Shown: positions 9,120-49,770 of the stretch, piece after piece
Layout of the letters: the number at the start of each line of letters is the position of its first letter
How positions within the stretch are numbered: position 1 is the first letter of the stretch
Assembly (NCBI GenBank): GCA_964538675.1
Contig: CAZIGM010000002.1
Location: forward strand, 2,870 to 66,869
Source of the DNA: an uncultured Bacillaceae bacterium
GTDB lineage: Bacteria; Bacillota; Bacilli; Tepidibacillales; Tepidibacillaceae
Reading direction: 5' to 3'
Length of the DNA stretch: 64,000 nucleotides
The notes under the pieces: generated by a model
The model's input: the letters and a program-made list of their open reading frames with translations, nothing else
Told to the model about the DNA's origin: nothing
The model's database searches: none
Translations under genes and position numbers: made by a program

Positions 9120-9212
9120 AATATACTCTCCTCGCATAATTCCTTTTTCAATTCAATAGATTTAATGTGCACTATTTACAAACTTAATAAGTGCGGCAAA
9201 CTAACCACTCCC

Positions 9213-9295: not shown

Positions 9296-9460
9296 GAAGA
9301 TCTAACATCTTATCATAAACAGGCAGGTCTCCTGACTCTTGGCAATGTATTTCCACGCCTTCCCGTCTTATTCTTAGACAGTGGCATAATGTGGAATACT
9401 TCCAATTACAGTGGCGGGACCGTGTTGGGTTTTCACCAAACTTCCCTTTTATCTTCTAGT
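9296..9460 (-). promoter_or_regulatory. cobalamin (B12) riboswitch aptamer
   Basis: Minus strand reads AGGGAAGTTTGGTGAAAACCCAACACGGTCCCGCCACTG, then GCCACTG, GGGAAGGCG and AGTCAGGAGACCTGCC (B12 box). Closing helix is GAAGAT/ATCTTC. Confidence 0.85.
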
Positions 9461-9552
9461 CACTTAAATACTAAAAGAACCTATTTATTAATTAAGTTAT
9501 GTAATTTTTTTATCATTATATATTATAGTTAAACAATTAACAAGTTTTTCAG

Positions 9553-10092
9553 TTACAAGTCAATGCCTTTAACTGCGGTAATTCCTTTATTATAATAATG
9601 TTTAATAGGATTTATTTCTGATACAAGATCGGCAATATCTATCAATTCCTGTTTGGCTCCTCTTCCTGTAATAACAAGATGAAGGTTATCGGGCTTTGTT
9701 TCTATCAATTCTATAACTTCAGACAAAGGCAATATATCGTCTATTGCAAAATTATTAATAGCTAAAGCACAATTTAATTCATCTAATACTATTAAATCAT
9801 ATTGACCTGACATAACCTTTTCTTTTGCAAACTTCCATGCATTTTTTAAAACTTCACGCTGTTTTTCTATTGTTTTTGTCCATGTAAAGCCAATTCCCAA
9901 CTGCTCTATTTCAACCCCTAATTTTTCTAATGCTTCTTGCTCACCAGAAAAGCCTTCCTTTGCCTTGATAAATTGAAAAAAACCTACTTTCATATTATTA
10001 CCTGCTGCTCTAACGGCCAAACCAATAGCTGATGATGTTTTACCTTTCCCATCTCCAGTATAAATAAGAGTAAGTCCTTTTTTAGTCTTCAT
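9553..10092 (-). CDS. cobO: cob(I)yrinic acid a,c-diamide / corrinoid adenosyltransferase (CobA/CobO/BtuR type)
   Basis: 179 aa with P-loop GDGKGKTSSAIG and LDELNCAL. Confidence 0.85.
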   Translation of the reverse strand: MKTKKGLTLIYTGDGKGKTSSAIGLAVRAAGNNMKVGFFQFIKAKEGFSGEQEALEKLGVEIEQLGIGFTWTKTIEKQREVLKNAWKFAKEKVMSGQYDLIVLDELNCALAINNFAIDDILPLSEVIELIETKPDNLHLVITGRGAKQELIDIADLVSEINPIKHYYNKGITAVKGIDL

Positions 10093-18795: not shown

Positions 18796-19182
18796 ATGAA
18801 AAACTCCAAGATACTTATTATTGAAGATGAACACTCTATATCCGAAATCCTAACTTATAAATTAAAAAAAGAGAAATTTGAAGTAATGGGTGCGAAAACT
18901 GGACAAGAAGGTTTAATTGTAATACCTTACTTTAAACCAGACCTTATTTTACTAGATATTAAACTTCCTGATATTAGCGGATTTGATATCTGCAAAGAGA
19001 TAAAAGATAACTATCAAACTCCTATAATTATGTTAACAGCTAGAATCAATTTAAAGGATATAAGTTATGGATTAGCCCTTGGAGCAGAAGATTATATTAC
19101 AAAGCCTTTCGACATCAATGATGTTTTAGAAAGAATTAACTTAGTATTAGATAGAAGGAAAAATACTTCATGTTTTAACTAA
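18796..19182 (+). CDS. stand-alone response-regulator receiver domain protein (CheY/Spo0F-like)
   Basis: 128 aa with acidic pocket IIEDE, phospho-acceptor LILLDIKLPD, LTAR and KPF. No output domain. RBS is GAGGGTG. Confidence 0.85.
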   Translation: MKNSKILIIEDEHSISEILTYKLKKEKFEVMGAKTGQEGLIVIPYFKPDLILLDIKLPDISGFDICKEIKDNYQTPIIMLTARINLKDISYGLALGAEDYITKPFDINDVLERINLVLDRRKNTSCFN

Positions 19183-19207
19183 ACTAAATACTTAGAAATT
19201 AATAACT

Positions 19208-19549
19208 ATGAGAAAAAATATTATTTTTCATAAGGAGGTGATTCTTATAAATACATCCTTAACAAAGAAAATAAACCATAGCAAAAATAACTCTCAAAAA
19301 CAGAAGGTTGAGGATATTGAAAAAAATATTTATGAAGAAAAATTGAAAGAAGAATTTTTCAATAATATATCTCATGAAATAAAAACTCCTATTACAATAA
19401 TCTTAGGTTATGCTCAACTATTAAAGGAAGAATACTATAGCTGTAATGGAATTCACTCTATAGCAATAGATTATATAGAATCCGAAAGCAAAAAACTAAA
19501 TTCAATAGTAGATGAAATTATTGAAAAAGCCAGATATAGTAAATATTAA
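19208..19549 (+). CDS. DHp (HisKA) -only mini-protein, paralog 1
   Basis: H-box FFNNISHEIKTPITIILGYAQLLKEE. The ORF stops about 55 aa after the His with no ATP-binding domain. Start is uncertain because AAGGAGG at 19232 is followed by no canonical start codon. Confidence 0.6.
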   Translation: MRKNIIFHKEVILINTSLTKKINHSKNNSQKQKVEDIEKNIYEEKLKEEFFNNISHEIKTPITIILGYAQLLKEEYYSCNGIHSIAIDYIESESKKLNSIVDEIIEKARYSKY

Positions 19550-19554
19550 AAACC

Positions 19555-19588
19555 CAGGTATGCGGTTTTAAAAAACTGCATACCTTTG
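19555..19588 (+). terminator. hairpin terminator after DHp paralog 1
   Basis: AGGTATGC-14 nt loop-GCATACCT followed by TTGT. The T-run is weak. Confidence 0.45.
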
Positions 19589-19635
19589 TATATATGTAAG
19601 AAAATCTTTAAAATGGTAAATTAAATAATATATGT

Positions 19636-19663
19636 TTGCAATTTACCAATATAATGATATAAT
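19636..19663 (+). promoter_or_regulatory. sigma-A-like promoter (TTGCAA-16 nt-TGaTATAAT)
   Basis: Consensus-like elements upstream of DHp paralog 2. Confidence 0.45.
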
Positions 19664-19725
19664 TTTTTTTAGCTTTTTTAATAATAAAGATTAAAACTGA
19701 TATGTTCAATGAGGAGATAGAAATA

Positions 19726-20025
19726 GTGAATATAGCTAAAAAACATAAATTTGCAAAAACTAAAATTACTTCATTTAACAAGCCTATTAATAAAAAGAAA
19801 ATAATAGTTTCAGAAAACTATAAAAAAGAATTTTTTAATAACATATCTCATGAAATTAAGACCCCACTAACTATAATCTTAGGCTACGCACAACTTTTAA
19901 AAGAAGAGAATTTCAGCTCTGAAAGACTGTATTTAGAAGCTGTTGAAAATATAGAGCATGAAAGCATAAGATTAAATTCATTAATAAATAATCTTATAGA
20001 AAAAGCAAAACAAACTAAAAATTAA
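19726..20025 (+). CDS. DHp (HisKA) -only mini-protein, paralog 2
   Basis: H-box FFNNISHEIKTPLTIILGYAQLLKEE. GTG 19726 lies 9 nt after GAGGAG, whereas the ORF-track ATG 19702 lacks an RBS. A terminator follows. Confidence 0.65.
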   Translation: MNIAKKHKFAKTKITSFNKPINKKKIIVSENYKKEFFNNISHEIKTPLTIILGYAQLLKEENFSSERLYLEAVENIEHESIRLNSLINNLIEKAKQTKN

Positions 20026-20067
20026 AAGAAGATGATTACTGCATATCTCGCAGAATCATCTTCTTTT
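20026..20067 (+). terminator. intrinsic terminator after DHp paralog 2
   Basis: 12-bp stem AAGAAGATGATT / AATCATCTTCTT followed by TT. Confidence 0.6.
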
Positions 20068-20219
20068 GCATTTATTCTCACTCATTTTTTTCTCCTTCTT
20101 TCTTCCCCTATGCCATACACTTTGTCTTTCTGAAACGTAATGAAGAATCTTTTTTTCTTGATAGATTATTCGGAAAAGCCTCAGATTAACTTATTTATGG
20201 AAAAATACATAATTAATGT

Positions 20220-20247
20220 TTGCATTCACCTTATTAAATGGTATAAT
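20220..20247 (+). promoter_or_regulatory. sigma-A-like promoter (TTGCAT-16 nt-TGgTATAAT)
   Basis: Consensus-like elements at the head of leader L2. Confidence 0.45.
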
Positions 20248-20254
20248 TTTCTAA

Positions 20255-20482
20255 GGGAAATTAAAAAGTTGCCATGACCCTTGAGTGTTGGAAGCACTCA
20301 AAGGCTCATGCAGGTGAATTGGCACCTACACGTGAGACATATTGTCTCCACAGCAACGATGTTATTATATACTATATTTGGCATTTCCTCAATCAACAAT
20401 AACATTAGTGCATGTGTAGGGTTAAACCTGCGCATGCACTTTTTAATTTCCCTCCAAAAAAAATATTTGGAGGGAAATTTAT
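20255..20482 (+). promoter_or_regulatory. structured ~230-nt leader L2 (homolog of L1)
   Basis: Block homology to L1. Terminator at 20408-20445. An extra hairpin TTCCCTCCAAA/TTTGGAGGGAA (20448-20476) covers the SD. Confidence 0.5.
20408..20445 (+). terminator. leader L2 intrinsic terminator
   Basis: GTGCATGTG-loop-CGCATGCAC followed by TTTTT. Two stem positions co-vary with the L1 hairpin. Confidence 0.6.
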
Positions 20483-20594
20483 ATGCAACAAGCTAGAATA
20501 CTCGTCATTGAAGGACTACTTCACAAAACCTTTTGATATTAACGAATTACTAAAGATAATTAAAAAGACAGTAAAACAAAGTTGCTTATGCTAG
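20483..20594 (+). pseudogene. receiver-domain gene remnant with large internal out-of-frame deletion
   Basis: Starts MQQARILVIE (receiver N-terminus). One frame over it continues DYFTKPFDINELLKIIKK (receiver C-terminus). About 85 codons are missing in between. Confidence 0.7.
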
Positions 20595-20647
20595 TTCAAT
20601 TAATTGAAATATTATTTGTATAGGTTACTAGATTAGGAGATAAGAGA

Positions 20648-20890
20648 ATGTTTATTAATGAGAAAGATAATAAAATTATTATGGAAAAATATAAAGAGGA
20701 GTTTTTCAACATTCTAGCGCATGAACTCAAAACCCCACTTACAATAATTATAGGATATGCCCAGTTGTTAAAAGAAGAAGAATTTAGTTCAAAGGAAACT
20801 TATCTAAAAGCTGTTAGCAATATAGAATATGAAAGCAAGAAGCTTAACTCTATAATAGATGAGCTTATAAAGAAGGCAAAACAATTTTAA
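20648..20890 (+). CDS. DHp (HisKA) -only mini-protein, paralog 3
   Basis: 80 aa with H-box FFNILAHELKTPLTIIIGYAQLLKEE. AGGAG lies 8 nt upstream of the ATG. Confidence 0.7.
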   Translation: MFINEKDNKIIMEKYKEEFFNILAHELKTPLTIIIGYAQLLKEEEFSSKETYLKAVSNIEYESKKLNSIIDELIKKAKQF

Positions 20891-20980
20891 GATTAGAAAA
20901 ACAGACGCTTATAAATTATTTGAGTTGAATCAAATATTAATTCAAATATATTAACATTCGACAATTTAAGACAAATTTCG

Positions 20981-21184: not shown

Positions 21185-21799
21185 ACATGGATAATGGATA
21201 AATATTAGGTGAAATTCACCATATATTAAACTCCTCTATCTTTGATTTTATTATGAATATCAATTTCTATTAAAATGAATTAATTTAAATGAATATTTAT
21301 TCAATTTATAAGGAAACTGCGTAAAAAAAGCCCTTTTCTAAGCAGTTTCCCCGGTACCTTTGCGAATGGAAATGAGCTTGTTAGTCTTCATAATTTTATC
21401 CTTTTGATAGTTTTTTTAAAATAATTATCATTAATGATTAACAAAGACATTTAATTTAAGGTGTCTCCACATGGCTCCCGACGTTGATTTTGATGTCTTG
21501 AGCGTTTTTTTTACACAGTTCCGTACGTGGACACTTTTCTACGCTATTTTTCACATTTTGCTCGTTCGCAGAAACATGTCCACTATATATGCGTATTTAG
21601 GGAACAATTCATACAATATATTGAGTGTTCAATTTTGATGTTTTTCCGTAAGTAAAATGGCACAATAGGTTCACCTTGATGTCTTGATTGCAATTTGTTA
21701 TTATGCCGTTCTCGGCAAAATGTCCACAGTGCTATTGTGGTTAAGCCCGTTCTCGGAAACAAGTCAATAGTTGAATCCAACTGAGAACGGTAAGGTAGT

Positions 21800-23080
21800 T
21801 TAAAATCCAGGGGTGCACTTCAGGATATATTCTGCATCTGTAAGCCGTTGTTCTGCCTCTTCACATAGCGTATCGTATGTAGTTATTCTTATATCACTCC
21901 GATTATTAGTCAGTAACCGCCTCCATTGATATATTGGGATTGACGGTTTTTTGCCAATAATCAGATTTATTTCTGGCTCGTAATATTCAATTCCTTCATC
22001 TGCCAAAGTCCTTTTTACCTTATCTTGTTCCAATAAACGTTTGTAGTTCTTCACTTGCGTAATAGCGTCGTGGACAGCAGAAACAAACATAGGAACATCC
22101 GATACCGACTTAGTTAAATCAATATTGGAACGCTTTAACTCAAAGAGTTCCCAATCACCTATAATTGTATTTCTCATAAAAATATCTAACCTACGGTCCT
22201 TTTTCCCTATGTCTAAATCAGGGAATCTTAGCCATAACTGTGTTGAAATCCTATCATATTTTCCTCCAAATATTTCCTGGTAATGTTGCCGCAAGAATTC
22301 CTCTAAATGCCTTTCTTTTGCATCGCTAAAAATCAACTTATTGAATTCAACCAGAACATCATTAGCTGCGATAACCTTTTTGAGGGTAGGTTGAATCAGG
22401 GACATTGACTTTCTTGTCACGCCGGAAAATTCATTTTCAGCTATAAATCGAGATGTATGAATACCACTGTCCGAAAGACTGATACATATCCCGTCATCGT
22501 TTTCCGTTAAAAAATTGCGAAGATTGTTCCGCACAACCGCCTCGTTTTTTGCTGATGCTTTTATGAACGTGTTTATATTTCCAGCTCCAATTCGATATGT
22601 ACTGTTTGGTAACATAGAAGTTAGTTGTTTTTCATACAACGAAAGTAATTCTTCATCATCAATGCCCAATTTCTCAGTATCAAAGTTATTTATTGCATAT
22701 AAAGTGACACCGTCAACAGGAAGCCAAAGATCATACTTCCTTTTAGATATGTATTTTGACATCAAATCCCGCAACTCTGCCAAGTCAAGATTATCGGGTG
22801 TAAATTTCTCAAATACCGTACTAGGTGCATAACACATAAGAAATGCGTCTGAACTTTGGTAGAATCTCTCTGGCGGGCATTCAAAAATTCTATCATCAAT
22901 ATGGGATAACTTTTGAATTTTTCCACTATAAAGTTCAGACTCATTAAGAAGTCTTTGAAAAAACACCTCAAAAGCGTTCCTGTCAAATCTTCCGATAATC
23001 GATTTTATCAAACCATCATCCATTTTTACCTCCTGAATTATCCAATTCACCAACCAATCTTCGAAGTCGCTAAAATACAT
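21800..23080 (-). CDS. DUF4263 (Shedu SduA-type) PD-(D/E)xK nuclease-domain protein
   Basis: 426 aa. C-terminal blocks are HLEEFLRQH, RLDIFMR, WELFELKRS, AITQVKNY, NLIIGKK and ITTYDTL. The N-terminal ~270 aa is unassigned. Confidence 0.7.
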   Translation of the reverse strand: MYFSDFEDWLVNWIIQEVKMDDGLIKSIIGRFDRNAFEVFFQRLLNESELYSGKIQKLSHIDDRIFECPPERFYQSSDAFLMCYAPSTVFEKFTPDNLDLAELRDLMSKYISKRKYDLWLPVDGVTLYAINNFDTEKLGIDDEELLSLYEKQLTSMLPNSTYRIGAGNINTFIKASAKNEAVVRNNLRNFLTENDDGICISLSDSGIHTSRFIAENEFSGVTRKSMSLIQPTLKKVIAANDVLVEFNKLIFSDAKERHLEEFLRQHYQEIFGGKYDRISTQLWLRFPDLDIGKKDRRLDIFMRNTIIGDWELFELKRSNIDLTKSVSDVPMFVSAVHDAITQVKNYKRLLEQDKVKRTLADEGIEYYEPEINLIIGKKPSIPIYQWRRLLTNNRSDIRITTYDTLCEEAEQRLTDAEYILKCTPGF

Positions 23081-23171
23081 ATACTCGTACCCCTGATCAT
23101 TCTTTTAGTTGAATAAATTTGAATTCTGAATCTAAGGGTAAAACTAATTCTGATTCCATATTTCTTGGATA

Positions 23172-25031
23172 TCAATCTCTCTTTATCTGGTAATACTCCA
23201 ACACTTCACGCACATTCTTTTCCTGACAATGTTCAATATCTTCGTCTGCAAATCGGTTGCTCGCAATTATATCTTTTGCAACTTGCAATTGTTTCTCATC
23301 GAGAGCCGTAAATTTATCCCACCATTCGTTCACAAGATTACTTTCATCGTCATAATGACTTCGATATCTATCCGCAAGTCGAGTCCGAAGTTCTTCGTCA
23401 TACTTTCGGCGATATATAATAAATGCTTCTGGCATCCAAAGAATTTTATTATATTCATCAATATCTTTCCCAAACGCTTCTTCAAAAAATGCTTTGCCAC
23501 GTCCGATTTTACCTTTTGTAGCATTAAGTACAGCTTGTATTGCACGAATAAACTTACGGTTCCAGTTCTTTCCGATGTAATCACGATTGCGGAAATAAAT
23601 TGGGTCGTCAATCGGATGATACTTCATAGGAAATGAGTAAATTGTGACACCAAGTTCTTCACAAAGATCTATGTTAATCCTCATTCGATAATATAGTTCA
23701 TCCGGCTTGTCTTGATAGTTATAAAGTAGATAGTTTGAAAGGTTACTAATACCGTGTTTAGCTGCTGTTTTTATTGCCTTTATATAAATATTGCTCATAG
23801 AATAATGGTCAAATGCTATACGTAGCGGGCGAATATTAATTTCGGATAGTTTTGCCATTTTTGCATCCGTGACCAATCTTGCATCAATACCTTGATTAAA
23901 ATCAATATAGCGTGCACGTTTCACTTTTTTAAAAATTTTATCATACAATGGGCGAACAGTATCATCAAAAGCAAGGATACTATCTTTTGTTGCGGCTTCA
24001 GTGTATAGTAAATTTAACTTTTCCCGTTTGCGATAGAAGTTGCCAGCGTCTTCTTCGCTCATTTTTTTTGAAAGACGATCATATATTCCAATCATTTTTT
24101 TTCTATACGCTCTGATATTATAACTAGCTTTCAGATTATCTATAGTGAAGCTATACTCGCTTGGCGGCATATACATTGCACTTTTCGCAAATCCACATTC
24201 TTTAATTTCATCAATAATTATATCAAAACATTTTGATGCAAAAACGTTATTGTCCATTAAAAGCAGATCCTTTTGAGCACCAAAGCGTTCTTCTGTCTCC
24301 TTAATTTGTTGTTTTAGAGCTATATAATCATTATAGTCCGGTTCGAGTCTCGGCACAGCACAAAATTCACACTTATTTACACAGCCCCTTGTCATATAAC
24401 CAAAGTACGCATTATTTGCAGGATACTTGTAATCTATCTCATCAAGAATAGAATAATCTAACGGCAATTCATCAATAATATATTGATTGTCATTATCTAG
24501 AATTCCAGGTGTGTTTAACAAACCTTTATGAGGATCAATTCCCGTTTCTTTTTTAATTTCTTCTGGCAAAATGGTTGACGCAATACCTCCCACGAGCATT
24601 CTACCGTCGTCTTTGCAAAATTTCTTTGCATAGTTGACTGTTTCAATTGTTTTATTCCAATAAAAGCTAAACAGCGTAGTAATGCCTACTACGTCATATT
24701 TTGGAAAGTCCTCAGCCTTGTACCGTAATCGATACACTTTAATTTTATTTTCCAACTCACTATTTTGAAAGTCCGGGATAGCATCTAAGGGAGCATATTT
24801 CCCAGTCTTAATGTGTTCAATCAGTTTAGGAAAGTACTTACCAAGAGAAGCATCTCCAATTTCATCAAAAAACTCCTCACAGAGGAGCCTTGCAGCAAGC
24901 TCTTTTAGATTTCCCTTGAAAAATCTTACATCATCTTCAAGACGACGATAGTATGTGGCTAATTTCATTAGCCCCATAGGTGGATATTTGTTTTTATAAT
25001 CTGGCTCAATTAGCAACACTCTTCGATTCAT
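23172..25031 (-). CDS. radical SAM protein with N-terminal B12-binding-like domain (class B-like)
   Basis: 619 aa with CxxxCxxC motif TRGCVNKCEFCAV. The N-terminus LLIEPDYKNKYPPMGLMKLATY resembles class B radical SAM enzymes. The ATG overlaps the upstream stop (ATGA). Confidence 0.7.
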   Translation of the reverse strand: MNRRVLLIEPDYKNKYPPMGLMKLATYYRRLEDDVRFFKGNLKELAARLLCEEFFDEIGDASLGKYFPKLIEHIKTGKYAPLDAIPDFQNSELENKIKVYRLRYKAEDFPKYDVVGITTLFSFYWNKTIETVNYAKKFCKDDGRMLVGGIASTILPEEIKKETGIDPHKGLLNTPGILDNDNQYIIDELPLDYSILDEIDYKYPANNAYFGYMTRGCVNKCEFCAVPRLEPDYNDYIALKQQIKETEERFGAQKDLLLMDNNVFASKCFDIIIDEIKECGFAKSAMYMPPSEYSFTIDNLKASYNIRAYRKKMIGIYDRLSKKMSEEDAGNFYRKREKLNLLYTEAATKDSILAFDDTVRPLYDKIFKKVKRARYIDFNQGIDARLVTDAKMAKLSEINIRPLRIAFDHYSMSNIYIKAIKTAAKHGISNLSNYLLYNYQDKPDELYYRMRINIDLCEELGVTIYSFPMKYHPIDDPIYFRNRDYIGKNWNRKFIRAIQAVLNATKGKIGRGKAFFEEAFGKDIDEYNKILWMPEAFIIYRRKYDEELRTRLADRYRSHYDDESNLVNEWWDKFTALDEKQLQVAKDIIASNRFADEDIEHCQEKNVREVLEYYQIKRD

Positions 25032-26596
25032 TGTAGTTCGTCCTCGATCTTCTGTATTATGGTTTCAGCAGTCTCTTTGTTAGTAGATGAGACAATAATT
25101 CCAAATATTTTTGAAATAAGTTTCCGTTCTTTTTTACTATAGGTTGATAGCTTATCCGTTCTCCATGGAATTTTAGTATCCTTTGTAATGTTTGATTCAG
25201 GTGGTTTTACACTTGTCACTATAGGATTTTTTTGATTTCGCTCCGTTTCAATACGGTTAATTAAGCGCCCCATGACGTTATTATCATTTCCATCAGCTTT
25301 TTTCTTTTTCTTTTCGATATTTTTTTTTGCTTCTTCTGCCTTAGATTTTGCTTTCTTAATTTCTGCAAATTCGGCTTCTCTATGCGCGGTATCAACAAAT
25401 ACGCCTTTTGCTTCTTTTTCCTTGAACTCCGCTTCTTTCTTAGCCAAGAAATCTATCTTATTAAACGCACTATTAATGGCAGAACCGCTATAATATGTAC
25501 TTTTGAGTTCATCATTAAAATATTGTTTAAGTTCTCGTTCAAATTGATTGCGTGTTTCATTTTCATTAAAATAATCTCTCTGAGAATTCGGTATAAGGTT
25601 TTTCGCCACAGCAAAAACTTCACCGATAAAATAATGATGCCCCCTGTCTTCTTTGAATAGTTTTTGCAATGCGTTGTCGTCACCTATCTGAATATTTTCC
25701 TTACGCAGACGAAGGCCACGCATTTGGCAATCCTTATGAATAGCCGCCTTAAAAACAGATACTCCCCACCAAATCCACGCGAGAAGGTTACCATCTACAT
25801 CTCTAATATCTTTGAATTCAATAGAAAATATTTCATCATCACCTTTAGCATGAGTTTTATACTTTGTCTTATATTTTTTTACCACTGTTTCACCATTCAG
25901 AGTGATATCATATTCATCAATATTATACTTTATTTCATCGGCATGTTTATGAATCTCCTTTCGGAATATAAAAGTGTTTATATAAGGAACAGGAGCCACA
26001 AAAGATAGATATTCCTTTATTTGTGCAAAATCAAGCAAGTCAGTGTTTGCATCATTAATTCCAACAAGTTCAACCTTAAACCAATGTTCATTGGGATCCG
26101 CCTTGTCTTCTGTCGTAAATTCATTTATAGAACGAAGAACATCACTTGCAGTATATTTTTCACCCCTTCCATTCGCAACAATCATTTCACGCATTTTTTG
26201 AGCATTGCAACACATAGTTGAGATGATAGTTTCGCCTTTTGCAGTCGATGTAAAAACCAATTCTCTACAATAAGCAAGCCCACATAACCTACCAATTCCA
26301 CGAAAGCCCTTATCCTCACCTATTTTTTTATCAGAATCGGCAATGTTACCTAAAGTTTTCTGGAAATCAGCAGCCGGAATCCCTGTTGCATTATCTTCTA
26401 TACTGATAATTCGTTTATCAGAATCAAGCCAGATATGAATACGCCCCTCACCTTGAAGCAAGAGTCCTTCTCGTTCTGCTTTGTCAATTTGATCACATGC
26501 GTTCTGTATATATTCGCGATAAATAACTCTTGAATCTTGGTACATTCCTGTCGTAAGATTTTCTAATATATTTACACCAAAAACATATTTGTCCAT
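25028..26596 (-). CDS. GHKL (Bergerat-fold, HATPase_c_3/MORC-like) ATPase
   Basis: 522 aa with N box EYIQNACDQ, G1 IEDNATGI and G2 GFRGIGRLCG. A Lys/Glu-rich coiled coil lies toward the C-terminus. RBS is GAGAGGAG. Confidence 0.75.
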   Translation of the reverse strand: MDKYVFGVNILENLTTGMYQDSRVIYREYIQNACDQIDKAEREGLLLQGEGRIHIWLDSDKRIISIEDNATGIPAADFQKTLGNIADSDKKIGEDKGFRGIGRLCGLAYCRELVFTSTAKGETIISTMCCNAQKMREMIVANGRGEKYTASDVLRSINEFTTEDKADPNEHWFKVELVGINDANTDLLDFAQIKEYLSFVAPVPYINTFIFRKEIHKHADEIKYNIDEYDITLNGETVVKKYKTKYKTHAKGDDEIFSIEFKDIRDVDGNLLAWIWWGVSVFKAAIHKDCQMRGLRLRKENIQIGDDNALQKLFKEDRGHHYFIGEVFAVAKNLIPNSQRDYFNENETRNQFERELKQYFNDELKSTYYSGSAINSAFNKIDFLAKKEAEFKEKEAKGVFVDTAHREAEFAEIKKAKSKAEEAKKNIEKKKKKADGNDNNVMGRLINRIETERNQKNPIVTSVKPPESNITKDTKIPWRTDKLSTYSKKERKLISKIFGIIVSSTNKETAETIIQKIEDELQ

Positions 26597-26625
26597 TAAC
26601 TCACTCCTCTCACTTTAATTGTTTG

Positions 26626-28350
26626 TCAGTCTTTGAATTGCTTATATATTGGTTTTGGAAATTTGATTTTCAGTAAGGAGCGAAAAATTGGATTTTGAAT
26701 TAGATAATCCCCCTGTTCCAATCTGGTTAACATGTTTTTATATGTACTCGGTAAACTACCATAATCCTTAGTAGCAGTTTCAATAGAGTTTGTTCGACCA
26801 TATGCATGAGTGGAACAATTTCCAGTAACTCGCTGATGTATATTGGAACGGAACTGTTCCGCACCAAAAAGCACAATGCCCAGCGAGCGACCACGTTCTG
26901 TAACATCTAGAATTTCTCTCAAAATTGGCGATGTCTTTGGTGTCTCTTTCGAGGCGTATTTATTGAGTTCGTCAATGAATACAATGATTCTCGATGGTGG
27001 ATTAACACCATCTTCTCCGTCATATTCACCCAATTTTAAATTGTAAATTGTACGCACCGCATCACCAAATACAAATGCTTGTTTATCCTCTGGAAGTTTA
27101 GCAACATCAATAACACAAACCTCATTTTTACTTATATGTTTCAACGCATCTGCCAAACGGCATTCATGCTTGCTTGGGTCAGGACGGTTTGCAAACATAT
27201 CATCATTTTTAGTTGCTTTGTTGATAATACGTTTAAACTTTCTCCAACTGAGCACAGATATTTCATTAGAAACCCTTTGCTGACCTTTTGTTGAAGGTTG
27301 CGACCTTTGGGAAAGCTCGTTTACCTTATCTCTAAAGTCTTGCCATGTTACAATGTTTCCACCACCAAAATCAGGGTCCATATCATCAATAATTTTGCTG
27401 ATTATCGACTCCATTGTTTGTTGTGGGTCATCAACATCTGCAAACAGCATTTCAAGACTTTCTTTATCATCTTCATACGAATATTTGAACTTTTCAAGTT
27501 GTTGATAATCCATATATACCTTCACATCATCTACGCCAAGATAAGTACTTCTTTTTGCTGATGTATTGCTCGAAAACGGAATATAGTATTTGACGTTCTT
27601 AAACGGTTCTGTTGATAGTTTAAGAATTTCATAGTCAGCAAAAACCCTTTCTTTTTCGCCTGGTTTGTCGGCAATAAAGTCATTTGCTCTATCAATTGCC
27701 ATAAGATCTTTGCCTTTGACATTAAAAATAACAAATGCAACACTATCATCGGCATCATCAACTTTTATGTAATGGTCCTGAATAGCTTTCAACAGAAACA
27801 TAGCGTACGAAGTCTTTGATGCAAGTCCTGAAATACCTGAGATATTTAGATGTGCTCCCTCAGGACCCAATATGAATTTAGAGTTGAGATTCACCGGCAA
27901 TATAACCTCATCATTGGTTCCTTCATACATCTTCAGCGAACCACAAACAAGAGGATTCTGAACTTTATCAAGACCTAATGCCATAGTTATTTCTTCAGCT
28001 GTAGCAAGATATACTGGAGCATTATTATGAACAGGAGTATAAAGGTTTTTGTCGTTGAAAGATATTGCAGCTTCAGCATAGTTCATCCTTACACGTAAAG
28101 TCGATTCTTCTACATTAACATCCCCGAAGTCGCTGGAAATGAAATTTGTTAAAAAGCTCTGAGCATCGGTAATATGAGAGATATTTTCAATCACACCAAA
28201 TGAAAACGAGTTGTCAATATGCTTAACTTTAACAATGTCGAATGCATGAAGCTTCAAATCTGAGTCTGTCCAAAAATTAAACTTATCCATTGTAGTCGGC
28301 GTTTTTTCAATGGCAAGTACACGTCCTATAAGTTTGTTTTTACTATTCAT
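26626..28350 (-). CDS. HerA/FtsK-clade ATPase (HerA-like)
   Basis: 574 aa with an N-terminal HAS-barrel-like segment, a deviant P-loop NISGISGLASKTSY, Walker B IIVFIDELNKY and RGRSLGIVLFGAEQ. GGAGG RBS. Confidence 0.7.
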   Translation of the reverse strand: MNSKNKLIGRVLAIEKTPTTMDKFNFWTDSDLKLHAFDIVKVKHIDNSFSFGVIENISHITDAQSFLTNFISSDFGDVNVEESTLRVRMNYAEAAISFNDKNLYTPVHNNAPVYLATAEEITMALGLDKVQNPLVCGSLKMYEGTNDEVILPVNLNSKFILGPEGAHLNISGISGLASKTSYAMFLLKAIQDHYIKVDDADDSVAFVIFNVKGKDLMAIDRANDFIADKPGEKERVFADYEILKLSTEPFKNVKYYIPFSSNTSAKRSTYLGVDDVKVYMDYQQLEKFKYSYEDDKESLEMLFADVDDPQQTMESIISKIIDDMDPDFGGGNIVTWQDFRDKVNELSQRSQPSTKGQQRVSNEISVLSWRKFKRIINKATKNDDMFANRPDPSKHECRLADALKHISKNEVCVIDVAKLPEDKQAFVFGDAVRTIYNLKLGEYDGEDGVNPPSRIIVFIDELNKYASKETPKTSPILREILDVTERGRSLGIVLFGAEQFRSNIHQRVTGNCSTHAYGRTNSIETATKDYGSLPSTYKNMLTRLEQGDYLIQNPIFRSLLKIKFPKPIYKQFKD

Positions 28351-28365
28351 TATTTTTACTCCTCC

Positions 28366-29532
28366 TTAAAATAGATGCAGAAAACTTTCTGTACTCAAAT
28401 ATTTTGACTTCACAAAAGACTCAGTAAGATATATAGGATAGATGTGATTCGCCCAACGCAAATCCGAACCATAGCAAACCGGATTACGTTCGTTTATCAG
28501 GTACGCACTAAGCACATCTACAAGGTCACTATCTATGCCATTATCGACATCTTCTTGCGTCACAAGTATTTTTTCTACTTTCAATATTCCATCAAAAGGA
28601 GTTCGAGTCCGTTTCTTATCCCTAAGCCGAATGTACCACACCGCAAACTGGATATCATTACCCAAAAAATCACTAACAAAACAGGCCACAGGCGTACGGT
28701 GATACAGTGGTAAGTCAGCAATAAATCCAGGATTTGATTTCCCATTAATATCCAAACATGTTTCTGGGTTAAAATTCTTTGAGACCCCTAGTACCCAACT
28801 GTAATTGTTTTTGAACATCTGGTATTTCCTTTTATCGGCCTTGTCCTCTTTGGTTGGCTTATATTCAAGCGAACCATCTTTAACCAAATAGTTATTTTGG
28901 TTTAACTTGCCCTCACGAACAAGCTCGGCGACCAGTTCTTTTTCACGTTCTATCATACGGTCTTGGATACACGCAGTTCCCCTATCTTCAAACTTCTTGT
29001 CTGTATTTTTTGCTGTTTTATATGGCAATATCGTAGAAAACACTATACCTACCCGTTTTAACTCTGCACACTCATTTAGCTTTTTGGCTGTTGCATTAAA
29101 AAAACCCGGTATCCCATCGGCATCAGCAATATCTGGCAATGACAATACTATCTCTCGTTTGAACTTCTCTGGAATGACTGTTTTATTAACTCTACGACAA
29201 CAGCCAACTCCAATTTGTCCAGCGATTACAGGATAAATTACACTTCTGCCATTAGACACTTTATAGGCAATATCATCAACTTTAAACACCCTACGAGAAC
29301 CATCTAAAAAATAAGCGAGTAACTGCTCATCCCTTGCCGCAAGTTTTTTTCTTAAATCTTCAAGAGAAATATATTTGCGGTGTGGAGTGGTTTCAGCTGT
29401 CTTTTTCCAGATGATCGAATTATCTCCATAATCTATAAATGGGCGTTCAACGTAATCTAGTCCATATTTATGAGCCTTATAGCTTTTACCTCCAGTTTCT
29501 CTCGCCAAGACAGTCATTATTTTATCTGCCAT
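28366..29532 (-). CDS. NurA-like RNase-H-fold nuclease
   Basis: 388 aa from ATG 29532, with AGGAGG 6 nt upstream. The ORF-track start at 29619 has no RBS. Motifs are FLDGSRR, IEREKE and LVKDGSLEY. It sits immediately upstream of the HerA-like gene. Confidence 0.6.
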   Translation of the reverse strand: MADKIMTVLARETGGKSYKAHKYGLDYVERPFIDYGDNSIIWKKTAETTPHRKYISLEDLRKKLAARDEQLLAYFLDGSRRVFKVDDIAYKVSNGRSVIYPVIAGQIGVGCCRRVNKTVIPEKFKREIVLSLPDIADADGIPGFFNATAKKLNECAELKRVGIVFSTILPYKTAKNTDKKFEDRGTACIQDRMIEREKELVAELVREGKLNQNNYLVKDGSLEYKPTKEDKADKRKYQMFKNNYSWVLGVSKNFNPETCLDINGKSNPGFIADLPLYHRTPVACFVSDFLGNDIQFAVWYIRLRDKKRTRTPFDGILKVEKILVTQEDVDNGIDSDLVDVLSAYLINERNPVCYGSDLRWANHIYPIYLTESFVKSKYLSTESFLHLF

Positions 29533-29556
29533 GTATTTCCTCCTATGATTGACATA

Positions 29557-29585
29557 ATTATCATTTTTTGACGAATAGGTGTCGA
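29557..29585 (-). promoter_or_regulatory. candidate sigma-A promoter of the five-gene operon (TCGACA-17 nt-GATAAT)
   Basis: Read on the minus strand, about 25-50 nt upstream of the NurA-like start. A TG lies one nt before the -10. Confidence 0.35.
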
Positions 29586-30245
29586 GTAAAAAACTTACAT
29601 TTGTAAACCCGTACACCAATACTAATTAATTTATCAATTGTAGTGATTTTAGACATATCACTATTTCTTTTATCACCATGCTACCTATGTCATCGCTCAT
29701 GATGAATTCAATCATATTCACACTGCTATAATCCCCAGTTGTCCAAATATCATTTTTGCAATAATAACCTTACACTAACCGCAGTTAGAAATTATATAGC
29801 GAAACAAAGAAGCTTTCATACCGTCTGTAGCGCCGCACTCTTTCAACGACAAAATCTACGAATCAAGGAACAGCATCTAGGCGCATATTCCCCTCGCACT
29901 TCTAAAAATTTCATAATAGTAGGCGCCATGGACATATATAAAAAGGCATGATGGCCCTTGCATTCATTCAGTTTTTGCTTTCCATATTATCACCGCATCA
30001 AAGGTATCCTTCGAAATACTTGCTATTATACAATTTGGAAGGCAATTCTAACAATTAGTGTAAATATAACATATTTATTCACGATTATAAATTTAAAAAT
30101 TACGAAAACGCGAACATTATTTTAAAATAATCAAAAGACTAATAATACGCACCAATTTTACATCTATCCCATTTCCTCAAGATCATGCATGTTATCTAAT
30201 ATGCCAACTCAAACCCCACTTCATTTTACGGTCCTTTTTCTTTCC

Positions 30246-31029: not shown

Positions 31030-31260
31030 CTAATCCACTGTAATATTCTTTAATTTCCCATCTTTCTTTTCATCTACTGGCTTCTTCTCTAAATATTCTC
31101 CTGATATAGTATGAATGGCTTTGATGAACTCGTCTTGATGTTCTTTTATATTTGTTCTAACAGGTTCAGGCATTTCTTCTAAGATAACATCTGCTATTCT
31201 TAATTTAATTCGAAGTAAATTGATTATCATTTCTTCATTTATCATTAGTTTTACCTCCAA
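31030..31260 (-). CDS. small hypothetical protein downstream of ArsA-like gene
   Basis: 76-aa ORF overlapping the ArsA-like stop. No recognisable motif. Confidence 0.4.
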   Translation of the reverse strand: MEVKLMINEEMIINLLRIKLRIADVILEEMPEPVRTNIKEHQDEFIKAIHTISGEYLEKKPVDEKKDGKLKNITVD

Positions 31261-32413
31261 ACCTTATTAATAACCTTTCATCCTCAAGCTTAGCACCTTT
31301 TATACTTAAGGAAGTTAATGTTCTTGGTAAGGAAATATTTCTTTTGACTTTACCTGCCTTAATAATTAACTCATCACCTTTTTGGTTTAAATCTAAATCT
31401 TCCTTACTAATAAATGGCATGTATAGTGAGAAGATATAATCTTCATTATCTTTAATCACTTCCTGAGTTCTTATATTATATTTAATCTCATTAGGATCTT
31501 CGTCTTTAAATATTTCATTCCCCATTTTTTGTAGCATCTTTATGCCTACAACTTCTTGTTCAAATAATGGAGCATAATATATTGGTAATGGTGAAAAGTT
31601 GTTTTTTATTGTCTCTATATATTCCTTTTGGATATCCTTCCATGCCTTAAAATAATCATCTGTTACACTATTAGGTAATACCTTATTTATAACTATTGCA
31701 TCAATATTGAAGTTATATATATTAAGATAAGTAAAGCTTCTCTGAGCCTCTTTAATTACCATTTTCTCTGGATTTACTACAATTCTTATACTAGCCACTT
31801 CTTTATTTGAAAAAAGATTTCTCATCTCGTCTAACTGTTGATAGATATTCTCTATTTCTCCCATAACACCATCAGAAGGCATTGGAATCCCAGTTAACGG
31901 TTGAATGACTGGTTTAATCAATTTAATTGCTTTTCTTTTCATCGGAAATAATTTTTCCATCCACCAGCGAAGCATATCTGGAAAACTTAGTAGTGCCAAT
32001 GTTTCCCCTGTTGGAGCTGAATCAATAATTATTACATCATATGTGTTTTCTTTATAGTACTTAAGTATTCTAATAAGACTTAATAAATCTTCTAAACCAG
32101 GAAACATCGTTAATTCTTCTGTTGTAATATCCTTAATAGTTTTTGATGTAAAAAGAGCTGTTAAGTATTCTTGTATTTTACCCCAACCTTTTTCTACTTC
32201 ATAAGTTGGATCTATTTCTTGTGCCCATAAGTTCTCTTTAATTTCTATTGGTTCAGCTGTCAATTTAAGATCAAAAGAATCACCTAAGCTATGAGCTGGA
32301 TCAGTGCTAACAATTAAAGTTTTTAACCCTTTCTTAGCACTTTGAACAGCAGATGCTGCTGCTATGCTTGTTTTACCAACTCCACCTTTACCTGTGTATA
32401 AAATAATTCTCAT
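31235..32413 (-). CDS. ArsA/GET3-family ATPase with C-terminal HSP20-like domain
   Basis: Deviant Walker A GKGGVGKTS, a DTAPTG-like IDSAPTGE, and a C-terminal beta-rich tail (DELIIKAGKVKRNISLP). Confidence 0.8.
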   Translation of the reverse strand: MRIILYTGKGGVGKTSIAAASAVQSAKKGLKTLIVSTDPAHSLGDSFDLKLTAEPIEIKENLWAQEIDPTYEVEKGWGKIQEYLTALFTSKTIKDITTEELTMFPGLEDLLSLIRILKYYKENTYDVIIIDSAPTGETLALLSFPDMLRWWMEKLFPMKRKAIKLIKPVIQPLTGIPMPSDGVMGEIENIYQQLDEMRNLFSNKEVASIRIVVNPEKMVIKEAQRSFTYLNIYNFNIDAIVINKVLPNSVTDDYFKAWKDIQKEYIETIKNNFSPLPIYYAPLFEQEVVGIKMLQKMGNEIFKDEDPNEIKYNIRTQEVIKDNEDYIFSLYMPFISKEDLDLNQKGDELIIKAGKVKRNISLPRTLTSLSIKGAKLEDERLLIRFGGKTNDK

Positions 32414-41675: not shown

Positions 41676-41830
41676 AAATTAAATTCAAAGCACTCAAGTA
41701 TCTCCTTTACAAAACAGGAAGGCATACACGTTTCCATGAATACCCCGCGGGATATAAATATCCCAGGTCAATTAACCGTAAACTTTATTGTCCTTAGGTA
41801 ATAATTGACTCGGAGATGATTATTTAATTA
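41676..41830 (-). promoter_or_regulatory. unclassified multi-hairpin leader RNA
   Basis: The closing helix ATCTCC/GGAGAT encloses hairpins GTCAATTA/TTAATTGAC, GGGATA/TATCCC and GGAA/TTCC. No known riboswitch core was recognised. Confidence 0.35.
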
Positions 41831-49446: not shown

Positions 49447-49700
49447 TATTTTCCCTCCATAAATAAAAAATAAAAAATAAAAACCACATCCCAAAAACAT
49501 AGGGACGTGGTTAAACGCGTTACCACCCTAATTAAGAGCATGCTTAAATTCTCTCATCTCATTTGCTTAACGGGTTACCGGAATAGTTTTATTTTCTATT
49601 CAGCTCTAGTATTGTAATTCGGTTAGATAATATTGTACTGACTTCCACCTTAATATCAGCTCTCTTAGAACAAATATTATCGCCTACTTAGAACTTTCAT
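49447..49700 (-). promoter_or_regulatory. T-box riboswitch leader (Tyr specifier)
   Basis: T-box sequence AGGGTGGTAACGCG at 49516-49529, terminator stem at 49484-49510 with a T-run, AGAGA motif, and a UAC codon at 49635-49637 followed by A in a specifier-loop-like context. Confidence 0.85.
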
Positions 49701-49770
49701 TGCTTTTATTTATAAGATTTTTATTAATTTTTAACATAATATCTTACAAAAGTCAATATTGCTCTTCTTA

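Follow-up and report, generated by a model that had tools for sequence, protein, structure and literature searches.

A horizontally mobile operon of NurA-like, HerA, GHKL and radical SAM genes as a candidate anti-phage system

Several described systems share parts with the locus analysed here. PD-lambda-5 is an experimentally validated prophage defence system that consists of a ParB/HEPN protein and a DNA methyltransferase and is described as a compacted RM+Abi (Vassallo et al. 2022, PMC9519451). HerA and NurA form an end-resection complex in Deinococcus radiodurans (PDB 7F6D) and in archaea, and the complex acts from DNA ends. In the defence systems Sir2-HerA and DUF4297-HerA, HerA is the scaffold or activator of an effector. 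DndB- and DpdB-type proteins belong to modification-based immunity (Dnd phosphorothioation and Dpd 7-deazaguanine), Menshen consists of NsnABC (PMC12065111), and TsrM, MgmA and OxsB are class B, i.e. cobalamin-dependent, radical SAM (rSAM) enzymes. In a 64,000-nucleotide stretch of DNA from an uncultured Bacillaceae bacterium (hereafter the window), we found an operon that combines a NurA-like nuclease (gene A), a HerA ATPase (gene B), a GHKL ATPase (gene C) and an rSAM enzyme (gene D). No description of it was found in PADLOC or in the literature searched.

Organisation of the operon and its four products

The initial annotation reported a GHKL ATPase gene overlapping a large rSAM gene, and this observation is confirmed. 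The 619-aa protein contains TRGCVNKCEFCAV, and its N-terminal segment LLIEPDYKNKYPPMGLMKLATY is present and nearly invariant. The genomic context that had been claimed also holds, as the window has a cobalamin riboswitch, ABC_tran/FecCD/Peripla_BP_2 genes and CobO (Table 1). The interpretation, however, is only partly supported. The pair is not a stand-alone module here but the distal half of a four-gene operon, since two more co-transcribed genes lie upstream at 29532-26626. The four genes are co-directional with gaps of 15, 29 and -4 nt, and a single promoter-like site and RBS lie upstream. The overlap had been taken to imply tight stoichiometric coupling, but it is a common operon junction: among 83 homologous loci it is -4 in 26, -1 in 8, -26 in 3 and +1 to +7 in 41, so it says little about stoichiometry.

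Table 1. Positions of the operon, its parts and the neighbouring features in the window
Feature	Position	Strand	Description
Operon with promoter-like site	29585-23172	-	Genes A-D occupy 29532-23172
DNA shared with Desulfosporosinus	23133/23157-29655		90% nucleotide identity
Island	21.5-29.9 kb		GC 34-39%, against 24-31% outside
Promoter-like site	29557-29585	-	TCGACA-17-GATAAT, followed by RBS AGGAGG and an ATG at 29532
Gene A	28366-29532	-	NurA-like nuclease, 388 aa; starts at M30 of the 417-aa mechanical ORF 29619..28366
Gene B	26626-28350	-	HerA-type hexameric ATPase/translocase, 574 aa
Walker A of B	27808-27837	-	GISGLASKT
Walker B of B	26968-26973	-	D460-E461
Gene C	25028-26596	-	GHKL (Bergerat-fold) ATPase, 522 aa
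ATP-binding domain of C	26177-26596	-	Roughly residues 1-140
Linker of C		-	Residues 381-480, variable and K/E-rich, followed by a conserved C-terminal tail
C/D overlap	25028-25031	-	ATGA, stop of C and start of D
Gene D	23172-25031	-	Radical SAM enzyme, 619 aa
Rossmann/B12-binding-like domain of D (predicted)	24522-25031	-	About residues 1-170, helical insert at 40-110
rSAM barrel of D (predicted)	23622-24419	-	About residues 205-470, helical insert at 291-370
CX3CX2C of D	24360-24383	-	C217, C221, C224; predicted ligands of the radical SAM [4Fe-4S] cluster
C-terminal region of D		-	Residues 471-619, helical
Shedu gene	21800-23080		SduA
Cobalamin riboswitch	9305-9499		
ABC_tran/FecCD/Peripla_BP_2 genes	6357-9137		
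CobO	9553-10092		

For gene A, the start was assigned because homologues align from residue about 30 and a strong RBS precedes the ATG. The promoter-like site is a consensus match only, but it lies within the DNA shared with the Desulfosporosinus copies, so this region travels with the cassette. A profile built from a diverse alignment of A has one significant PDB hit, NurA of the D. radiodurans HerA-NurA complex (7f6d_H, E=4e-5). The support is weak, as only one of 25 members hits Pfam NurA (PF09376, 1.9e-4) and a narrower profile found nothing; a homologue from Heliomicrobium (78% identical) is named 'NurA domain-containing' in UniRef. D77 and D219 (both in DGS motifs), H363 and E371 are invariant in the diverse alignment, while E127 is invariant only among close homologues. 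The AF2 model of A is unusable (pLDDT 51), which leaves the RNase H-like fold undecided, and the assignment of these residues as catalytic is inference. For gene B, the profile matches HerA of the same complex (7f6d_B) at E=4.6e-48 in two stretches, residues 4-257 and 403-561, and K179, T180, D460 and E461 are invariant. PADLOC gives mad8 at 1.6e-9 and HerA at only 2.6e-3. B is the most conserved of the four genes.

Gene C matches Pfam HATPase_c_3 (PF13589) above threshold (37 bits against 25; 4e-9), and E28, N32, D35, D68, G72 and G97-G102, which include the ExxxN, DxGxG and G-rich lid motifs, are invariant. It is the fastest-evolving gene of the four. The protein had been called MORC-like, but this is not shown. 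By sequence the GHKL domain is nearest to HtpG/Hsp90: all 60 listed of the 136 PDB matches of the profile are HtpG/Hsp90/TRAP1/Grp94 N-domains, and they cover residues 14-90 only, while the best NCBIfam hits are HtpG and HSP90, then Top6B. MORC and paraMORC have a GHKL domain plus an S5-fold transducer, with sequence affinity to MORC or MutL rather than Hsp90. No structure of C was modelled, and membership of this group is neither supported nor excluded by these matches. The neighbouring Shedu gene scores 35.5 bits against 27 for PF14082/DUF4263 and matches five PADLOC SduA models. It is a separate system, present near the cassette in only 2 of 85 loci in our first set and lying outside the DNA shared with Desulfosporosinus.

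The three cysteines of the CX3CX2C motif of D are invariant in 41 homologues. The AF2 model is confident (pLDDT 89.7, pTM 0.86) and has a Rossmann-like domain (strands 4-9, 34-39, 112-119 and 139-149 with flanking helices) followed by an rSAM barrel. All 14 PDB fold matches found with Foldseek at E<=1e-3 are rSAM enzymes, the nearest being TsrM (1e-7), MgmA, AprD4, OxsB and MiaB, with RimO also among them, and Foldseek against BFVD returned phage 'Radical SAM' and 'B12-binding_like' proteins. Nevertheless, D is a divergent member of the superfamily: Pfam Radical_SAM (PF04055) scores 20.9 bits against a cut-off of 29.5, although a few homologues do carry a precomputed PF04055 hit, and reductive cleavage of SAM was not measured. 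A failure of the N-terminal domain to fold as a B12- or Rossmann-like domain had been set in advance as grounds for rejecting the idea of the initial annotation, and the predicted fold does not fail in this way. Cobalamin dependence is nevertheless not established. Pfam B12-binding scores 18.1 against 32.1 bits, and AprD4 and MiaB/RimO, which do not use cobalamin, match comparably; the fold evidence is compatible with either case. There is no universal sequence motif for cobalamin binding, the coordinates of the model were not inspected, and neither bound cobalamin nor methyl transfer (SAH plus 5'-dA) was assayed.

Assignment to a well-characterised housekeeping rSAM family had likewise been named as an outcome that would defeat the idea, and D was found to belong to none. 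The methylthiotransferases (MiaB/RimO/MtaB) have three conserved Cys in the N-terminal domain for an auxiliary cluster and a C-terminal TRAM domain, but only C51 and C139 are near-invariant in that domain of D and there is no TRAM hit. Prokaryotic viperins are rSAM enzymes of roughly 300-350 aa. D has an extra N-terminal domain, gives no PADLOC hit of any kind, and has no viperin among its fold matches.

Distribution, mobility and partners of the radical SAM family

Linkage of the two genes in other genomes was the remaining condition posed by the initial annotation, and they are linked almost without exception. Among species-representative genome loci that have room upstream, 64 of 68 carry colinear A-B-C-D, and 60 of 62 metagenome loci anchored on B carry C and D. 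These loci span more than ten phyla of anaerobes, including an archaeon. (Homologous loci are denoted by L and a number.) The four exceptions are a decayed or truncated A/B (L007, L026), an insertion between B and C (L073) and a missing C (L085). The order is kept in IMG/VR contigs where A is 32%, B 43%, C 32% and D 38-40% identical to the window. In total, 27 IMG/VR contigs encode relatives of D and about 13 of them carry the full four-gene cassette. A pattern-limited scan of 185,579 species representatives confirmed 224 relatives of D, so the distribution is patchy.

The 6.5-kb cassette is shared with two Desulfosporosinus genomes in which the flanks are unrelated, and it sits in a GC-distinct island. 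Its neighbours include Shedu, both here and in L047, L076 and L158, an integrase plus Mob_Pre, prophage or ICE genes, and an HD dGTPase-like gene.

Relatives of this rSAM also pair with other DNA-associated partners. DndB-like, rSAM and GHKL triads occur on alphaproteobacterial plasmids, of Rhizobium, Novosphingobium, Bradyrhizobium and Roseomonas. On the Rhizobium and Novosphingobium plasmids the order is reversed, i.e. rSAM followed by GHKL, and that GHKL is 31% identical to the window's (E=6e-58). In Marinitoga camini virus 1, a prophage, NurA-HerA plus a short rSAM lies between a resolvase/ParE-like toxin and a LexA-like repressor. L108 carries a DpdB/DndB-like protein plus rSAM, and at least one locus (L106) has GHKL plus rSAM without recognisable A or B.

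In L101 and L103-L105, the gene directly upstream of the rSAM is a ParB/HEPN protein, and that of L105 matches PADLOC PD-Lambda-5_A at 8.4e-72. In L207 (Alkaliphilus, apparent Tn7-like cargo) a 42%-identical homologue sits in the same position. Homologues of that ParB/HEPN protein are followed 4 nt later by a D12-class DNA adenine methyltransferase in L206 and L208, whereas in other loci the same position holds this rSAM family instead (38% identical to the window's D, E=9e-91). No conventional methyltransferase was found among the neighbouring genes scanned.

A possible restriction-modification-like function and its rivals

Our best reading is that the cassette is an anti-phage or anti-plasmid system of the restriction-modification type, to which we give a probability of about 0.45. 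In this view, D would work with the ATP-gated C, which clamps or senses DNA, and together they would place a covalent mark on resident DNA. HerA and the NurA-like nuclease would form the destructive arm, which threads and degrades DNA that lacks the mark or is otherwise flagged by C. The operon structure, the identities of the four proteins, their near-obligate co-inheritance, the mobility of the cassette and the alternative partnerships of the rSAM family come directly from our computations, while the defence function, DNA as the rSAM substrate, the nature of the mark (methylation if the enzyme is truly class B) and the division of labour between C and A-B are inferences. The occurrence of rSAM relatives in the methyltransferase slot gives independent support to the self-marking idea raised by the initial annotation, but this argument rests on paralogues 35-40% identical to D and not on the window's own cassette. 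No experiment bears on this family. No radical SAM enzyme is known to install a protective mark on duplex DNA, and these enzymes are slow and oxygen-labile, which makes genome-wide marking demanding. The cassette shows no obvious sequence-specificity subunit and, given that HerA-NurA acts from ends, it is not clear how unmarked DNA would be recognised. In this clade D was never seen as an orphan, which differs from classical R-M, where orphan methylases are common, although D-anchored loci with decayed A/B (L007, L026) or decayed or missing C (L009, L018, L085) do exist.

Among the alternatives, a possible but less likely one is an infection-triggered effector system without self-marking, where C senses an invader cue, D damages DNA by radical hydrogen abstraction or drains SAM, and HerA-NurA then degrades the DNA, giving abortive infection or direct destruction of the invader. 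This agrees with the role of HerA in known defence systems, with C being the fastest-evolving gene, as expected of a sensor, with the variants in which a GHKL copy takes the place of the Menshen sensor, and with the mutually obligate genes. On the other hand, D-family paralogues replace a methyltransferase, which is a protective component and not a toxic one, and D persists intact where A/B or C have decayed, which is not expected of a dangerous effector. A repair or maintenance module borne on a mobile element seems unlikely. In it, HerA-NurA would resect ends as in Deinococcus and archaea, D would reverse or process a lesion as does spore photoproduct lyase, the one rSAM known to act on duplex DNA, and C would act like MutL or Hsp90. 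The homology of A and B to the D. radiodurans pair is in its favour, but the patchy distribution, transfer as a unit between unrelated flanks, neighbouring defence genes and integrases, and substitution for a methyltransferase in a validated defence system are not.

Equally unlikely is an antiviral small-molecule synthase, in which D converts a nucleotide into a chain terminator or another inhibitor in the manner of viperin (ddhNTPs) or OxsB (oxetanocin A), with the other proteins regulating it or acting in parallel. The initial annotation raised a small-molecule product as an option, OxsB is among the significant fold matches (5ul2, 1.6e-5), and one Desulfosporosinus locus has an HD/HD_assoc gene downstream, but nothing else supports this reading. 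No kinase or phosphohydrolase is conserved in the cassette, and every conserved partner of the family is a DNA-binding or DNA-processing protein (NurA, HerA, GHKL, DndB/ParB). Least likely is the stand-alone two-gene module. The GHKL-rSAM pair is indeed the conserved core shared by the cassette and the DndB triads, and L106 has the pair without recognisable A or B, but the high frequency of complete cassettes in the window's own clade is against it.

If our main reading is right, it adds an unrecognised, phylogenetically broad defence system: one search returned more than 6,000 protein clusters homologous to D, and the closest 80 of the 224 species-representative loci come from more than ten phyla. 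It would also reveal a new type of enzymatic DNA modification made by radical chemistry, with possible uses as an orthogonal epigenetic mark, and would give a function to a large 'hypothetical' branch of the B12-binding-like radical SAM enzymes. The cassette also shows the bacterial HerA-NurA pair recruited outside DNA repair. The most far-reaching version, which we consider doubtful but possible, is that the window encodes the first radical SAM enzyme, possibly cobalamin-dependent, that chemically marks DNA as 'self', coupled through a GHKL clamp to a HerA-NurA motor-nuclease that destroys unmarked DNA. This would be a new chemistry for restriction-modification-type immunity, widespread in anaerobic bacteria and present in at least one archaeon, with sister systems using ParB/HEPN, DndB or PIN-type partners. 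Even if the modification idea is wrong, the cassette is a well-delimited four-gene unit that can be cloned and tested directly.

Comparison with described systems

When compared with the HerA-NurA end-resection complex, A and B match the two partners of the same solved structure and are adjacent in the order nurA-herA, but here the pair is fused into an operon with a GHKL ATPase and an rSAM enzyme, and it is patchily distributed and mobile and not a chromosomal repair locus. With Sir2-HerA and DUF4297-HerA the cassette shares a HerA-family ATPase paired with an effector in a mobile defence context. The effector here is NurA-like, no Sir2 or DUF4297 domain was found in any of the four proteins, and two further enzymes are obligatory. 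A sub-clade of the cassette carries NsnB-like (1e-67) and NsnC-like (2e-11) genes of Menshen after a GHKL copy; this is absent from the window, and in those variants a GHKL replaces the ParB-DUF262 sensor NsnA.

With TsrM, MgmA and OxsB, D shares the predicted N-terminal Rossmann-like domain followed by the CX3CX2C barrel, and its N-terminal PPxGL-type segment, pointed out by the initial annotation as resembling class B enzymes, is nearly invariant in the family. There is no sequence-level match to any solved member, and D has large helical inserts and a 150-aa helical C-terminal region. As for modification-based immunity, paralogous rSAM-GHKL pairs are preceded by DndB-like (DGQHR) proteins and the partner in L108 matches PADLOC DpdB at 2.4e-24, but no DndACDE or DpdA/C genes are present and the chemistry would be radical SAM based. 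Finally, relatives of the window's rSAM sit immediately downstream of PD-lambda-5_A homologues, exactly where the D12-class methyltransferase sits in PD-lambda-5-like loci, and both types are found beside integrase or recombinase genes in prophage or transposon contexts. The relationship is indirect, through paralogues of D: PADLOC PD-Lambda-5 models do not match any window protein, and the window has no ParB/HEPN gene and no conventional methyltransferase, its partners being GHKL, HerA and NurA-like proteins.

Gene content of the operon

The overlapping gene pair singled out in the initial annotation was confirmed, since the 522-aa and 619-aa ORFs on the minus strand do share an ATGA. However, this overlap itself is unremarkable. 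Among 83 homologous loci the junction is -4 in 26, -1 in 8, -26 in 3 and +1 to +7 in 41, and the inference of tight stoichiometric coupling drawn from it was overstated. The real unit is a four-gene operon, because two more ORFs lie directly upstream on the same strand. We call the genes A, B, C and D in order of transcription, and the intergenic gaps are 15, 29 and -4 nt. The first ORF was delimited mechanically at 417 aa, but its true start is an internal ATG giving 388 aa, as supported by an AGGAGG RBS, a promoter-like site upstream, and homologues that align from residue about 30. All coordinates are collected in the table.

Features of the operon and of the surrounding window
Feature	Position	Strand	Remarks
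Promoter-like site	29585-29557	minus	TCGACA-17-GATAAT
Gene A, NurA-like	29532..28366	minus	388 aa; mechanical ORF 29619..28366, 417 aa
Gene B, HerA	28350..26626	minus	574 aa
Gene C, GHKL ATPase	26596..25028	minus	522 aa
Overlap of genes C and D	25028-25031	minus	ATGA
Gene D, radical SAM	25031..23172	minus	619 aa
C217, C221 and C224 of D	24360-24383	minus	three Cys
DNA shared with two Desulfosporosinus genomes	23133/23157-29655		90% nucleotide identity
Compositional island	21500-29900		GC 34-39% against 24-31% on both sides
Shedu SduA homologue	21800-23080	minus	91 nt downstream of the cassette
Two-component-like locus	18796-20898	plus
Receiver-domain ORF	18796-19182	plus	stand-alone
HisKA-only small ORFs	19208-19549, 19702-20025, 20648-20890	plus	three paralogues
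Receiver-like fragment	20412-20594
Cobalamin riboswitch	9305-9499	minus	118 bits
BtuFCD-type transporter	6357-9137	minus	Peripla_BP_2/FecCD/ABC_tran genes
CobO	9553-10092	minus	ATP:corrinoid adenosyltransferase
ArsA-type ATPase	31235-32413	minus	C-terminal HSP20-like domain
Moco (molybdenum/tungsten cofactor) riboswitch and T-box leader	41686-41827 and 49498-49709	minus	both above the Rfam gathering scores

Gene B is a HerA. A profile of 26 homologues matches HerA of the Deinococcus radiodurans HerA-NurA complex (7f6d_B) at E=4.6e-48, in an N-terminal and a C-terminal stretch, and the Walker A residues (K179/T180) and Walker B residues (D460/E461) are invariant. Gene A is NurA-like, although here the evidence is thinner. 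A narrow profile found nothing in PDB, and the AF2 model had a pLDDT of only 51, so that no fold search was run on it. A more diverse 14-sequence profile has one significant PDB hit, which is NurA from the same 7F6D complex (E=4e-5). In addition, one of 25 members hits Pfam NurA, and UniRef labels a 78%-identical Heliomicrobium homologue as 'NurA domain-containing'. Residues D77 and D219 (both in DGS motifs), H363 and E371 are invariant. Gene C matches Pfam HATPase_c_3 above threshold and has intact Bergerat motifs (E28, N32, D68, G72, G97-G102), but by sequence it is nearest to HtpG/Hsp90 N-domains and not to MORC, so the earlier description of this protein as MORC-like was overstated.

The product of gene D carries TRGCVNKCEFCAV. 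Its three Cys are invariant in 41 homologues that are 65-91% identical, and so is most of the N-terminal LLIEPxYKNKYPPMGLMK segment. Pfam recognizes Radical_SAM (20.9 bits) and B12-binding (18.1 bits) only below their thresholds, and searches against PDB, both with the single sequence and with a profile, found nothing. On the other hand, the AF2 model is confident (pLDDT 89.7, pTM 0.86), and it consists of a four-stranded Rossmann-like domain with a helical insert, a radical SAM (rSAM) barrel with a second helical insert, and a helical C-terminal region. The best PDB folds are TsrM, MgmA, AprD4, OxsB and MiaB/RimO, while the best viral folds are uncharacterised phage 'Radical SAM' and 'B12-binding_like' proteins. 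These matches include cobalamin-dependent enzymes (TsrM, OxsB), but also AprD4, which uses no cobalamin, and MiaB, which uses an auxiliary Fe-S cluster. The predicted fold therefore confirms the class-B-like architecture but not cobalamin use, and the cobalamin dependence suggested in the initial annotation is left undecided. We also considered an MTTase-like auxiliary cluster in the N-terminal domain and rejected it, because no Cys triad is conserved there.

Linkage, mobility and genomic context

Gene D has more than 6,400 homologous protein clusters, all unnamed or 'hypothetical', and this figure is a lower bound. A pattern-limited scan of 185,579 species-representative genomes confirmed 224 relatives. 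The 80 kept come from Bacillota, Bacteroidota, Chlorobi, Chloroflexi, Planctomycetota, Synergistota, Cloacimonadota, Endomicrobia, Desulfobulbus, Coriobacteriia, Melainabacteria and a Methanomicrobiales archaeon, and by their names and sources they look essentially all anaerobic. Of 68 loci with enough upstream sequence, 64 carry colinear A-B-C-D, and the four exceptions are decayed or interrupted copies. When gene B was used as the anchor instead, 60 of 62 metagenome loci with room downstream carry C and D. It should be noted that both scans keep the closest 80 relatives. The order survives in IMG/VR contigs where A, B, C and D are only 32, 43, 32 and 38-40% identical to the window. Gene C evolves fastest (53% mean identity, with residues 381-480 the most variable), and gene B evolves slowest (70%).

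The two Desulfosporosinus genomes share exactly the interval in the table and nothing beyond it. The 6.5-kb cassette, including its promoter-like site, is therefore the transferred unit. It lies within the GC-distinct island, but no att-like direct repeats bound the island and there is no tRNA in the window. The Shedu SduA homologue downstream (PF14082 at 35.5 bits, with matches to five PADLOC SduA models) is inside the same island. We considered it as a fifth component and rejected this, since it lies outside the shared DNA and a 47-49% identical Shedu gene recurs near the cassette in only a few loci (L047, L076 and L158). It is a defence-island neighbour. Elsewhere the cassette sits beside DUF429 plus an SNF2 helicase and an HD dGTPase-like gene, beside an integrase plus Mob_Pre, or beside prophage or ICE genes. 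A total of 27 IMG/VR viral contigs encode relatives of D, and about 13 of them carry the full four-gene cassette.

The initial annotation was also correct in placing a B12 riboswitch, a BtuFCD-type importer and cobO in the window, and the riboswitch lies upstream of the transporter genes. We considered these corrinoid salvage genes as functionally linked to the cassette and rejected this, because they lie 13 kb away, outside the island, and are ordinary housekeeping genes. On the other side, the ArsA-type ATPase lies just beyond the AT-rich gap upstream of the island. In the two-component-like locus, the receiver-domain ORF is followed by three small ORFs consisting of little more than a HisKA dimerisation domain, which correspond to a 216-nt repeat in three copies at 69-72% identity to the reference copy. 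This is either a decayed two-component locus or an unusual set of HisKA-only proteins.

Partners of the radical SAM family

The comparison of what the rSAM family keeps company with is the most informative result. On plasmids of Rhizobium, Novosphingobium, Bradyrhizobium and Roseomonas, a 543-aa paralogue (36-41% identical) lies between a DndB-like DGQHR protein and a GHKL ATPase, and this GHKL is a clear homologue of C (31% identity, E=6e-58). The triad is conserved in plasmid loci L086 (Rhizobium pR132505), L087 (Novosphingobium pNL1), L090 and L091. It often lies beside a PIN_8 nuclease plus second GHKL pair and a ParB-N plus SNF2 helicase pair, and pNL1 also has a DndB-HEPN(Swt1-like) fusion. 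PADLOC gave no hit for the rSAM, its GHKL partner or PIN_8, and only a marginal TmtA hit for the second GHKL, while the DndB-like protein was not scanned. In the temperate phage Marinitoga camini virus 1 (KP836355, 6902-10728), homologues of A (E=5e-17) and B (E=6e-89) lie convergent with a 360-aa rSAM of this family, and there is no GHKL gene there. A ParE-like toxin and a resolvase lie on one side and a LexA-like repressor further along on the other. In locus L108, a DpdB/DndB-like protein precedes a 411-aa rSAM next to an integrase.

In loci L101 and L103-L105, and in locus L207 (Alkaliphilus hydrothermalis, JAFBEE010000026, 1-7345), the gene immediately upstream of a roughly 540-550-aa rSAM (38% identical to D, E=9e-91) is a ParB-N-like protein with NPDNAR and DGNRR motifs. 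The L105 copy matches PADLOC PD-Lambda-5_A at E=8.4e-72, and the L207 copy (P0435) is its 42%-identical homologue. UniRef labels the L207 protein 'Organic radical activating enzyme', apparently a mis-transferred name. The L207 pair sits directly after TniB/TniQ-TnsD/TnsE_C genes, and so it looks like cargo of a Tn7-like transposon. PD-lambda-5 was validated experimentally as a ParB/HEPN plus methyltransferase system and is described as a compacted RM+Abi (PMC9519451). More distant homologues of the same ParB/HEPN protein (27% identity over 98% of its length) are followed 4 nt later by a D12-class DNA adenine methyltransferase in loci L206 and L208. In contrast, the rSAM-linked loci show no conventional methyltransferase among the neighbouring genes scanned, and they abut integrases or recombinases. 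A scan of viral contigs with the ParB/HEPN alignment recovered only the four loci already in our set, and tblastn of phages and plasmids with it gave no informative neighbours.

A sub-clade of the four-gene cassette inserts NsnB-like and NsnC-like genes after a duplicated GHKL, which is where Menshen has its ParB-DUF262 sensor NsnA (PMC12065111). In metagenome loci L183, L185, L198, L167, L180 and L189, these Menshen-like NsnB (PADLOC 1e-67) and NsnC (2e-11) genes are inserted between two GHKL paralogues or between HerA and GHKL, and some copies also have a small protein with a sub-threshold HEPN_RiboL-PSP match. In metagenome locus L196, a second GHKL and a 329-aa unknown protein are inserted instead. 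Across all these contexts the rSAM is the common denominator, and its partners fall into two types, namely NTP-dependent DNA clamps or sensors (GHKL, ParB/DndB) and nuclease modules (NurA-HerA, PIN_8, HEPN, NsnC).

Proposed mechanism and comparison with known systems

The simplest account is a restriction-modification-like system. In this view D, working with and probably bound to C, would install a covalent mark on resident DNA, and the HerA-NurA motor-nuclease would degrade DNA that lacks the mark. The C-D gene pair is the conserved core, and the two genes abut or overlap. If D is a true class B enzyme, the mark would be a methyl group on a carbon that ordinary SAM methyltransferases cannot reach. 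Our data demonstrate the gene structure, the protein identities, the co-inheritance, the mobility and the swapping of partners, while the defence function, DNA as the substrate, and the roles of C and of A-B are inferred. The account has several weak points. There is no experimental precedent for an rSAM enzyme writing a protective DNA mark, no specificity determinant is visible, HerA-NurA acts from DNA ends, there are no orphan D genes in this clade, and the methyltransferase-slot argument comes from paralogues. We hold this reading only tentatively, with a probability of about 0.45, although we regard the weaker statement that this is a four-gene mobile conflict system as very likely.

Among the alternatives, a trigger-activated effector system without marking is the strongest, yet it is less likely than the marking account. 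An antiviral small-molecule synthase and an element-borne DNA repair module are both improbable and to about the same degree, and the stand-alone two-gene module proposed in the initial annotation is the least probable of all. The interpretation in that annotation as a whole is partly supported by our analysis. It had been staked on the two genes being linked in other genomes, on a B12-like fold of the N-terminal domain, and on the enzyme not falling into a housekeeping family, and on these three points it held, while the idea of self-marking gains support. It is nevertheless incomplete, as half of the operon was missed.

When compared with catalogued systems, PADLOC gave no match for A, C or D, nor for the plasmid or IMG/VR paralogues, and the cassette is therefore not a catalogued system in that 2023 release. 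Full-text literature searches on combinations of the families concerned (radical SAM, HerA, NurA, GHKL, MORC, DndB, DGQHR and ParB) found no description of this gene combination, and the hits examined were irrelevant. The cassette is not a member of Sir2-HerA or DUF4297-HerA, of viperin, of Dnd/Dpd, of PD-lambda-5, of Menshen or of Shedu, since for each of them a defining component is absent or the models do not match. Its parts are known families and its likely logic, to mark self and destroy non-self, is also known, but the combination of the parts is new, and the chemistry would be new if confirmed.
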